DNA of 64,000 nucleotides, taken from NCBI GenBank assembly GCA_963796455.1, contig CAWCLO010000010.1:224001-288000 (forward strand), written 5' to 3'. Positions 24,222-64,000 of this stretch are shown one piece after another. The stretch's first letter is position 1. Every line of letters starts with the position of its first letter. Below the pieces are notes generated by a model. The model made no database searches, was not told the DNA's origin, and saw only the letters and a program-made list of their open reading frames with translations. Source of the DNA: Candidatus Sulfomarinibacteraceae bacterium (GTDB lineage Bacteria; Acidobacteriota; Thermoanaerobaculia; Thermoanaerobaculales; Sulfomarinibacteraceae). Both the position numbers and the translations under genes were made by a program.

Positions 24222-24322
24222 GGCTGGGGGCTGGGGGCTTGGGGCTTGGGGCCTGAGGACAGGCGGAGGAGAAAGGGAGAAAGGGAGAAGGGGAGAGCGG
24301 GAGACGGGGAACGGGGAACGGC
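24222..24322 (+). repeat. G-rich 7-8-mer tandem tract (GGGGCTT/GGGGGCT, GGGAGAAA, GGGGAAC)
   Basis: Read directly; G5-CT-G5-CTT-G4-CTT-G4 at 24226-24251. Confidence 0.85.
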
Positions 24323-24324
24323 AG

Positions 24325-24612
24325 ACAGGATCGGCGTACAGAAGTCAGAGGCAGAGGCAGCGAACAGCACTCACTTCTTCGGGGCCCTGGCTTTTGTGGT
24401 GCGGCCGTATCGGCCGCACGGTGTGCAGGCGAGACGCCTGCACCACAACGGGCTGTTCCTTCTGTTGAACGACTCGGAGGCGGCCACGCCGTCGCTGCAT
24501 CTGATCGCTACCGCTGACCGCTGTGCCCTGTCGCCGTATCCGGTCCCTGCTCCCTGCCGCTGTAGCTGTCGCTGTCGCTGCCGCTGCAATTCGGGTACTG
24601 GGACGGAATCGA
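24325..24612 (-). mobile_element. ORF-less derivative (copy C) of the four-helix-bundle element, carrying a REP-doublet
   Basis: About 128-nt core with about 12 differences from 28165-28292. Shares GGCC(A/G)CCTCC..GTCGTTCAACAGAAGG, CAGCGGCAGCGACAG and AAG-stop-G.GCTGTTCGC with 51180-51830. Confidence 0.7.
24394..24448. repeat. REP-like inverted doublet (REPIN-like)
   Basis: TTGTGG-TGCGGCCG-tat-CGGCCGCA ... TGCAGGCG-aga-CGCCTGCA-CCACAA: two hairpins, each preceded by GTGG on its own strand. Confidence 0.7.
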
Positions 24613-27997: not shown

Positions 27998-28425
27998 TCG
28001 ATACTCGATGCACGATGCACGATGCACGATGCTGGATGCCGGATCACTCTTGTCCAAGACAGAGTCTCAGACAGCGACCGAGGACAGCCTCAGTGACCAG
28101 GAGTCGGCGGCAGCGACAGCGGACAGGGTCAGCTAACAGTCGACAGCGAACAGCGGCCGGGACAGCGAACAGCACTCACTTCTTCGGGGCTCCGGCCTTT
28201 GTGGTGCGGCCGTCTCGGCCGCACGGTGTGCAGGCGAGACGCCAACACCACCACTGCTGTTCCTTCTGTTGAACGACCTGGAGGTGGCCACTTCGTCGCC
28301 TGTACTCCTGACCGCTGCTGCCGAACACTGATCGCTGTTCACTGTCGCTGCTCCCTGTTCGCTGTTGGCTGACGCTGGACACTGTCGCTGCCGCTGCAAT
28401 TCGGGATCGGGATCGGGATCGAAAA
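27998..28425 (-). mobile_element. ORF-less derivative (copy B) of the four-helix-bundle element, with REP-doublet and CGATGCA / GGGATC tandem ends
   Basis: Reverse complement shares GAGACTCTGTCTTGGACA and GGCATCCAGCATC with 51944-51990, and TCAGGAGT.CAG..G.CGAA.TGGCCACCTCC.GGTCGTTCAACAGAAGG with 51307-51356. Confidence 0.75.
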
Positions 28426-46659: not shown

Positions 46660-47853
<1,194 letters not shown>

Positions 47854-50992: not shown

Positions 50993-51326
50993 GCGGTTCT
51001 AGGGCGTTTTCGGCACATCAGAACGTTTTTTCGCCACCGGAGGGTCTCGAAACTCGCTCCTCGATGCTCGATCACTGCTGTCCAAAACAAATCGTCAGGT
51101 CGAGTTGCCCGCTTGACAACAAGAGGTTTACGGGTCGGTTTTTGGCATTTCCGGTTCGCGGTTTGCCCGTACCGGTACCCGATCCAGAAATACAGCGGCA
51201 GCGACAGCTTCCAGCGACAGGGAGCAGCGATCAGTCTTTGTTAGTCTTCAGTGTTCAGTGTTCAGTGTTCAGTGTTCAGCGGCAGCGGCAGCGGCAGCGG
51301 CAGCGATCAGGAGTCCAGTCGGCGAA

Positions 51327-51466
51327 ATGGCCACCTCCGGGTCGTTCAACAGAAGGGGTAGCCGGTGGGCGGCCGATGTCAAGGACAGGCAGGGTGCAGG
51401 GCATCCTTGACATCGGCCACCACACCGGCTTGTGGGAAAGGGCATGAACGACCCGGAGGTGACCAT
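51327..51466 (+). promoter_or_regulatory. Nested stem-loop 5' leader sequestering the RBS and start codon of the four-helix gene
   Basis: ATGGCCACCTCCGGGTCGTTCA (51327-51348) pairs with TGAACGACCCGGAGGTGACCAT (51445-51466), 1 mismatch; inner perfect 15-bp stem 51371-51385/51404-51418. Confidence 0.75.
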
Positions 51467-51818
51467 GTCCTCAGCCGCCACGAACACCAACCTCGTTGCC
51501 CACTCGAAAGCCCTCGAAGCAGCAGGAATTGCGATCAAGCTCGTCATGAGGGTTCCAGCTCCGCTGAAGTCCATAGCCGATCAGGTGATCCGGTCGGCAA
51601 GTTCGGTCCCTGCGAATCTGGCGGAAGGGCACGGCCGAGTCGGTAGAGACCGGTCGAACCACTGGAGAATCGCCTACGCCTCGGCCAAAGAGGTCGACAG
51701 CCACTTGGAGCTCCTCGCCCATACCGGTGCGATCAGTCGGGATCGCGCCATTGAAGCGATGAACGCCTTCGATCAGGTCCGAGCGATGACCTGGCGGCTC
51801 TTGAACCCGACCAAGTAA
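51465..51818 (+). CDS. Four-helix-bundle protein (23S rRNA IVS protein / bAvd-like fold family)
   Basis: ADQVIRSASSVPANLAEGHGR...HWRIAYASAKEVDSHL matches the family signature (Q..R...S...NIAEG.GR...IA.GS..E); SD GGAGGT. Confidence 0.88.
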   Translation: MSSAATNTNLVAHSKALEAAGIAIKLVMRVPAPLKSIADQVIRSASSVPANLAEGHGRVGRDRSNHWRIAYASAKEVDSHLELLAHTGAISRDRAIEAMNAFDQVRAMTWRLLNPTK

Positions 51819-51992
51819 GGGCTGTTCGCCGACGCTGCCCCAGCCGCTGGTTGCTGACGCTGATGACTGAACACTGCCGCTGGCGACTGTTCGCTGCCGC
51901 TGCCCCGGGGCGCTGCCGCCGTCGCTGTCCCTGAACGCTGCCAGAGACTCTGTCTTGGACACGAAAAATCGGGTTTGGGCATCCAGCATCAG

Positions 51993-63733: not shown

Positions 63734-64000
63734 TTATTCCAAGATGTCCGTAATGGAACCAGCGCCGACGGTACGGCCGCCTTCGCGAATCGCGAAACGG
63801 AGGCCTTTCTCCATCGCGATCGGCTGGATCAGCTCCACTTCCAGGTTTGTGTTGTCGCCGGGAATCACCATCTCGACACCTTCGTCGAGGTTGACCGATC
63901 CCGTGATGTCCGTCGTCCGGAAGAAGAACTGCGGGCGATAGCCCCGGAAGAACGGCGTGTGCCGGCCTCCCTCTTCCTTCGTCAACACATACACCTCGGC
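63734..64000 (-). CDS. tuf: Elongation factor Tu, second copy (3' part only)
   Basis: Nearly identical to 46660-46925; ends ITDILE versus ITEIVE. Confidence 0.97.

Follow-up and report, generated by a model that had tools for sequence, protein, structure and literature searches.

The closest described relatives of the locus analysed here presumably include MIC231, which we take to be a mobile insertion cassette of the IS4 family, and, for the doublet found in one class of gene-less copies, REPINs and their RAYT genes, which it presumably resembles. A preprint reportedly treats Avd-like genes lying between tandem repeats, and gap repair is a known route to derivative elements. Mobile insertion cassettes and IS4Sa MITEs have, like the present element, IS4 ends, a 9-bp duplication and no transposase, and consist of forms with a passenger gene together with gene-less miniature derivatives (available text of PMC3129680 and PMC2266710); the ends of the IS4Sa subgroup read CA------T and its duplications measure 8-10 bp (PMC2266710, in the part available). 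ORF-bearing intervening sequences (IVSs) of 23S rRNA, as in Coxiella and Leptospira, share with it a PF05635 gene (S23p) in the loop of a long stem, the occurrence of gene-bearing and gene-less forms, a sporadic distribution and poor predicted translation (available text of PMC4990558 and bioRxiv 2024.02.27.582315). The propagation of such IVSs and the function of their protein are long-standing questions, according to the accessible part of PMC4990558. Avd of DGRs is similar in fold (TM about 0.8), size, basic charge and pairing with a structured non-coding element (PMC5758913 and PMC10053308, as far as their available text goes).

The window, i.e., the whole 64-kb stretch of DNA that was analysed, belongs to a 5.02-Mb genome (G000) of 90.5% completeness. 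The first-pass annotation had pointed to a 117-aa four-helix-bundle ORF, antisense in the spacer that separates the rpoC terminator from the rpsL promoter, and this was confirmed. The ORF is antisense to both genes, is flanked by a terminator-like site at 52020-52001 and a promoter-like site at 50992-50964 (both on the - strand), and is preceded by a Shine-Dalgarno at 51455-51459, 5 nt before the start. Its protein matches PF05635 with 57.5 bits (cut-off 33.8) and TIGR02436 with 59.5 bits, above the cut-off. A single-sequence structure model shows four helices (pLDDT 93.7), and its closest structural matches are Xcc0516 and BT_0352 (27% identity); TM is 0.80 to Avd 4DWL (8% identity) and 0.82-0.84 to 2GSC. 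The calculated pI is 10.2. This is the sole gene of the window cassette, within which no transposase, integrase or RT was found, as had been noticed at first. An Rfam search of the 64-kb window returned tRNA only, and a consensus scan of the leader hairpin detected no outward or antisense promoter. The whole unit, with imperfect terminal repeats, occupies 51073-51967 (about 0.9 kb), so that the limits proposed earlier, 51175..51990, had to be moved: the left end lies about 100 bp further out. Arms made of repeats and of their complements were found on the two sides of the gene as described, and the stretch 51060-51990 folds more stably than 20 shuffled versions of it (z = -7.2). The relatives previously placed at 28.0-28.4 and 24.3-24.6 kb are real, but they are not empty copies, as a REP doublet replaces the gene in both (Table 1). 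Two further simple-repeat arrays abut the 24.3-kb sister (24230-24320), such arrays numbering at least 90 in the genome. Elsewhere in the window, 46660-47853 and 63735-64000 onward (from C10:287735) form a 1193-bp duplicate of the tuf region (98.9%), as expected for tufA/tufB. A 7.2-kb duplicate with 96% identity, reaching contig ends, joins C2:1-7218 and C10:770619-777833 of the same genome, and could reflect strain mixture or assembly overlap.

Table 1. Coordinates of the window copy of the cassette and of its two gene-less sisters.
Feature	Position	Strand	Remark
Left target 9-mer	51064..51072		Final unit of a short heptamer array; right end of the window copy without duplicate
Terminal inverted repeat = IS4-family right end	51073..51090	+	First 17/17 bases identical to the complete IS4 of G017
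Subterminal segment derived from IS4 right end	51091..51172	+	Aligns to the G017 IS4 end past the repeat
Left arm, 6-7-nt repeats	51193..51310	+	Differs in every copy
Leader core = anti-Shine-Dalgarno arm	51324..51348	+	Nearly invariant genus-wide; retained in most gene-less copies
Inner hairpin with compensatory changes	51361..51433	+	Most deletions, and the capture of the REP doublet, have their left break on its 5' side
Shine-Dalgarno and start codon	51445..51469	+	Predicted pairing with the core
117-aa four-helix-bundle gene, PF05635/TIGR02436	51465..51818	+	Fold of Xcc0516, BT_0352 and Avd
Right arm, complement of left-arm repeats	51821..51942	+	Repeat comparison
Terminal inverted repeat = IS4 left end	51950..51967	-	4 of the outer 6 bases altered in the window copy
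Heptamer-array remnant adjoining rpoC terminator	51980..51990		Sequence
Gene-less sister	28045..28422	-	IS4 end 28045-28062, arms, REP doublet 28201-28251, core 28270-28286; second IS4 end absent
Gene-less sister, no IS4 ends	24320..24592	-	REP doublet 24396-24446, core 24466-24482, arms; left limit approximate

The 18-bp end repeat also bounds a complete 1372-bp IS4 (NF033592, 269.8 bits). A complete IS4 with the cassette ends was likewise found in the congener G017 (251.6 bits), and its right end resembles the cassette over the next 80 bp past the repeat (p 0.0005-0.002 by shuffling for segments of the 51091..51172 type in three copies). The complete elements with cassette-type ends are L155 and L213 (G017:C434). 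When the genome collection was scanned with the end, the matches listed included IS4 transposase genes at at least 10 distinct loci, as well as miniature elements with exact 9-bp duplications. Several miniature IS4-ended elements of 200-390 bp carry exact 9-bp duplications, and those that were checked have no core (loci L117, L118, L120, L126, L160, L178, L180, L189, L196 and L209 for the miniatures). At one mismatch the end was found 161 times in G000, against 0 for the control. Exact 9-mer flank duplications surround 21 of the 80 elements with both ends (2.0 in shuffled pairs), and the flanks match at at least eight of nine positions in 40 of the 80 (7.9 expected). The signal is confined to 9 bp among the lengths 3-14 tested, and for the 32 pairs not situated in arrays z is 11.9. 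By cargo, exact duplications accompany 8/32 gene-bearing, 9/28 REP-bearing and 3/13 deletion copies, and in the congener G006 they were seen in 10/20 copies (1.9 expected). The window copy retains no target duplication and, its right end being damaged, is probably immobile. A 5-bp duplication with the AT belonging to the ends was considered and rejected, since pairs with other terminal bases still agree over 9 bp.

The target consensus is AT-N5-AT, mostly within heptamer arrays in intergenic DNA, and insertion occurs in either orientation; in 30/37 cases the flanking arrays continue in the same direction across the element. We had considered these arrays as footprints of repeated 9-bp duplication. 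This was dropped, since in four congeners the heptamer makes up the arms of a different PF05635 clade, and since IS4 elements in other taxa, inspected by eye, have no such arrays at their flanks; the arrays are better read as favoured targets. Ends and duplication together fit IS4Sa as tabulated in the available part of PMC2266710 (Table 1 there). Because of the IS4 ends and 9-bp target duplications we are highly confident that the outer unit is an IS4-derived mobile insertion cassette, and the original idea of movement without a transposase finds no support. It was likely moved in trans by an IS4 transposase. Among 25 genomes of the genus, a cognate transposase could be located in 1. Searches of G000 (90.5% complete) and of G006 (95%), where the burst is recent, turned up none.

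Congeners contain 0-54 matches each, and the tree shows genome-specific clades. Among 69 loci from 11 congeners, which represent top hits rather than all copies, 21 (G006) have IS4 ends, 30 another end and 18 neither. The second end type belongs to G008, G014, G016, G017, G005 and G003, and gives 8-bp duplications (7/21 exact vs 2.2). In G017 it bounds a complete ISL3, L338 (G017:C613), adjoining a gene-bearing cassette, with which it could form a composite transposon; this congener holds both complete partners, the other being the IS4 L213 on contig C434. ISL3 was looked for in G014 and not found. IS1595 had been a candidate partner of the second end type and was discarded (0/5 genomes). In metagenome and viral contigs the second end gave two miniature elements and otherwise chance matches. 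What stays constant across vehicles is the left arm, the leader and the gene. Named records that combine the ends of the element with the gene belong to Ca. Sulfomarinibacteraceae, Acidobacteriota. In run X1, contigs of sediment metagenomes cover the gene at a depth of 152-590 and unique flanks mostly at 1-40; among the sequencing runs compared, the best share of words was 0.26, and no read of the raw-read run X21 mapped.

The comparison of the rpoC-rpsL site with an empty one, as suggested at first, was informative. The spacer measures 209 bp in G011, which is empty, and 1172 bp in G000. Both genes were present together in 15 of 17 loci surveyed, and the 14 besides G011 are all without this cassette there. 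The spacer is an insertion hotspot, with lengths of 209-1228 bp in 15 genomes (L011-L027), most of which hold a different hairpin or repeat insert. In G013 a separate, opposite-facing copy stands behind the same rpoC terminator. Such a recurrence is one of the observations that agree with an inner module mobile by itself, a view close to the one first proposed, in which the protein and host repair would drive a homing-like gene conversion into hairpins and arrays without any transposase, and the IS ends would be secondary shells. Other observations of this kind are the 57 matches of G004, which have no IS4 end and, in the 30 loci examined by eye, no common end (two loci have an ISL3 end on one side); the many incomplete copies in G000, in which one end is missing or both are (226 loci, with 80 end pairs); the mixing of IS4-end haplotypes across cargo classes; and the bursts in genomes where cognate transposases were not found. 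However, the length of the duplication tracks the end type, 9 bp for IS4 and 8 bp for ISL3, which points to cognate transposases. In G004, moreover, the copies are of greater age (protein identity 80-88%), so that their ends may have disappeared since, and nearest-neighbour ends still cluster by cargo (22/27 and 13/22). We consider an autonomous module quite improbable, and continue with a cassette likely carried by IS4 and ISL3 transposases.

A blastn search of the element against its own genome returned 226 loci, 65 spanning the gene, 37 part of it and 124 little or none, so the dispersed family of ORF-bearing and ORF-less members that had been postulated does exist. Scanning for the leader core gave 182 sites, of which 62 have the gene, 70 a REP doublet and 50 deletions or other ends. 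The core is present in 73 of the 80 end-paired elements. None of the 182 sites falls within any of the 4079 genes predicted by our own caller, and the sites are over-represented in convergent gaps (68/182 vs 16%). In co-directional gaps, gene-bearing copies are antisense in 19 cases to 8 and gene-less ones in 19 to 28 (p 0.017, one of several comparisons). Local hopping was not seen, identity being 0.908 within 30 kb against 0.909. The left junction of the REP-bearing copies is common to 68/70 and the right one to 67/70, and judged by these junctions the 70 copies stem from essentially one capture event. They carry IS4 ends and duplications, and were therefore amplified the way the gene-bearing copies were. 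In the other derivatives that were mapped, the left break lies at 51349-51390, on the 5' side of the inner hairpin, in 38/46, a count biased by anchoring on the leader core; breaks often coincide with short shared words, and a jump to 51632-51634 is common to 9 derivatives. A third cargo, a long palindrome of another repeat family, was seen in IS4-ended cassettes that retain the right arm and lack the core, at C4:24631-25197, C4:114700-115252 and C5:1335-2018 of G000. Core-less IS4-ended miniatures are common in congeners. As both these and the gene-less copies spread well, the protein is not required in cis for transposition.

The REP doublets match REPs around two resident RAYT genes (profile match NF047646; C4:210157, L044, and C1:952748, L045). 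A second composite repeat family has a similar doublet, about 25 copies of it occurring among the 50 REP hits outside the cassette. The match to the RAYT-associated REPs, the Avd fold of the protein (TM 0.80 to 4DWL) and deletions and mosaics that look like template switching could together be taken for retroelement-like spread, either by an RT recruited in the manner of Avd and copying cassette RNA, or by RAYT moving the REP class. Against this, G000 and G004 have no PF00078 match, while matches do occur in G011 and G012, which lack the family; over 31 genomes RT presence showed no tie to family copy number. Nor was adenine-biased mutation seen among rare variants, the transition spectrum being even (A>G 0.38, C>T 0.33, G>A 0.31, T>C 0.28). 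The REP copies have IS4 ends and 9-bp duplications, and no leading/lagging strand bias was found (33 to 37 for the REP-bearing copies). Spread of this kind is very improbable, and for G000 largely refuted.

There were two observations on the gene copies themselves. Firstly, 57/63 near-full copies are intact, with a median identity of 89%. The ratio of N to S is 58:139 for shared variants and 67:32 for single ones (p 5e-10), with a neutral expectation of 2.4-3.1 to 1. This corresponds to pN/pS of 0.14 for shared variants and 0.69 for singletons, the latter being close to neutral after allowing for transitions and possibly including assembly errors. Within each of 7 genomes pN/pS is 0.10-0.26, the loci there being top hits, which favours intact copies. 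The second observation was a decay of linkage, with r2 falling from 0.14 to 0.02 within about 60 nt (0/1000 permutations). The purging of shared variants and the linkage decay together indicate selection on the protein in spreading lineages and exchange of short tracts between copies. Gap repair after cut-and-paste, or plain gene conversion, would probably explain both the mosaics and the derivatives.

The leader folds with z -7.3, equalled by 0 of 200 shuffles, and its ribosome site and start codon are predicted to pair with the core. According to this fold, the leader is predicted to block translation by hiding the ribosome site. Covariation in the folded RNA had been proposed as a check, and the leader stems do covary: among 119 distinct leaders from 12 genomes several pair types per column occur in the distal inner stem, with almost no sequence variation in the core stem or at the centre of the inner one. 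The four common interior mismatches would be wobble pairs on the - strand, which folds better in 97/119 leaders; as leader alleles are inherited, this preference is a hint only. The arms behaved differently from what was anticipated. They are complementary overall (-112 vs -67 kcal/mol for shuffled arms). However, an arm fits its own partner no better than the arms of other copies (z -0.9 in 39 gene-bearing and 0.1 in 62 mostly gene-less copies), and covariation of the flank pairing was thus not found.

Outside the cassette family, G000 has four unrelated single-copy PF05635 genes (C1:983149, C4:1278094, C9:2726 and C10:733004; L377-L380), each sitting between inverted arms of its own 6-8-mer. 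Each of these units forms 31-75 arrays genome-wide, nearly all intergenic; 328/336 arm-type arrays in G000 are intergenic. The co-occurrence of repeat motifs with four-helix ORFs elsewhere, suggested as a check, was also recovered across the genus, tandem repeats standing on both sides in 26 of the 30 top-scoring PF05635 loci, where a repeat was defined by a raw, unshuffled periodicity score of at least 9. The repeat unit follows the protein clade in a FastTree tree read by eye. One 8-mer reaches high numbers in G000 and G014 alone, each of which has a gene wrapped in it, with 1 and 3 matches in two more genomes; the 8-mer of G004 was found at its own gene only. G011 has neither a PF05635 gene nor any of three repeat patterns, and its rpoC-rpsL site is the empty one. 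One 7-mer family is spread over 22/25 genomes, and G000 contains 91 target-heptamer arrays, yet no gene of the clade carrying that heptamer. A gene and its arms are passed on together, so that agreement between repeat unit and clade is by itself no proof of binding. As the heptamer arrays are the arm unit of another clade, the cassette is a nest, an IS4 shell in the arrays of one clade enclosing the gene and arms of another.

A different account of the gene starts from the host. In this account the IS4 cassette carries a passenger kept by host selection, with the protein binding repeat arrays downstream of genes and acting on RNA stability or termination; gene conversion would spread variants, and missense alleles poisoning a pentamer would be purged while null alleles are tolerated. 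Several of the results above suit it: gene-less forms amplify freely, deletions are tolerated while shared missense is purged, mosaicism is of short tract, and arm-type arrays are intergenic, with core sites enriched in convergent gaps. On the other hand, copy number ranges from 0 to about 65 within the genus and G011 does without the whole family, the leader is predicted to block translation, and gene-bearing copies lie antisense in co-directional gaps more than gene-less ones do, as if avoiding expression. We find this account unlikely as a whole; host-level selection on the gene, taken by itself, is slightly less so, though still improbable.

The explanation we prefer, and hold for moderately probable, is that the cassette was moved in trans by an IS4 transposase, that its cargo is an older selected module, and that the protein binds its own repeat-and-hairpin strand and thereby favours copying. 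The last part, binding of the protein to its own arms or leader in favour of copying, is possible, with the balance tipped a little against it. The module resides within IS4 ends in G000 and G006, within ISL3 ends in four to five congeners, and within no common end in G004, and enters AT-N5-AT sites, mostly in intergenic heptamer arrays and in either orientation. A cognate transposase would act by cut-and-paste, followed by gap repair or gene conversion from other copies. Repair may switch template often and slip at the leader hairpin, which would give mosaics, microhomology deletions and the capture of the REP doublet; after this the gene-less forms multiplied, with the ends and duplications of the gene-bearing ones. 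In the weakest step, the protein, presumably a basic pentamer by homology, might recognise the arms and leader of its clade as a single strand, the - strand being slightly favoured. Such recognition could make the module a preferred template or cargo, and so keep the gene selected across separate bursts. The gene-less REP copies have spread as widely as the gene-bearing ones (70 vs 62).

A wider and more speculative reading, which we regard as rather unlikely, is that each clade of PF05635 proteins reads its own 6-8-nt tandem repeat, the protein and its arms together making up a nuclease-less selfish module. Such a module would copy itself via host repair, seed gene-less arrays across the genome, and colonise hairpin vehicles of any kind, IS4 and ISL3 ends as well as rRNA helices. 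If true, this would explain the protein of 23S IVSs, many bacterial heptamer arrays and the origin of DGR Avd. If the protein does read repeats, a single explanation would cover both a large orphan family and a frequent kind of bacterial repeat that so far lacks one. The present system offers 65 gene copies, derivatives that can be dated, a repeat specific to the clade, and two transposase partners that have been identified. This work adds the census of copies, the contrast in selection between shared and single variants, the mosaicism, the capture of the REP doublet and the finding of both partner transposases in one congener, together with a first test of the gene-repeat link, the outcome of which is mixed.

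A literature search in which subscription papers were thinly covered found PF05635 genes described neither in IS-ended cassettes nor in repeat arms. Compared with the described systems, the cassette differs from 23S IVSs in its place, as it lies outside rRNA: the sole 23S gene of G000 (C10:140644-143654) has no copy, and the mapped copies are all intergenic. It also has a route of spread in its IS ends and duplications, of which the available text of PMC4990558 and bioRxiv 2024.02.27.582315 describes none for IVSs. The differences from Avd of DGRs lie in the missing RT, the absence of adenine-biased change and an identity of 8%. With REPINs and RAYTs the family shares 70 gene-less copies whose doublet matches REPs beside resident RAYT genes, but here the unit is bounded by IS4 ends, has an exact 9-bp duplication in 9/28, and carries the doublet as cargo. 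Unlike the passengers of mobile insertion cassettes and IS4Sa MITEs, the one found here is a PF05635 gene with its own arms and hairpin leader, which was selected while spreading; its module occurs within ISL3 ends in congeners as well, forms fine mosaics, and reaches 65 gene-bearing copies per genome.
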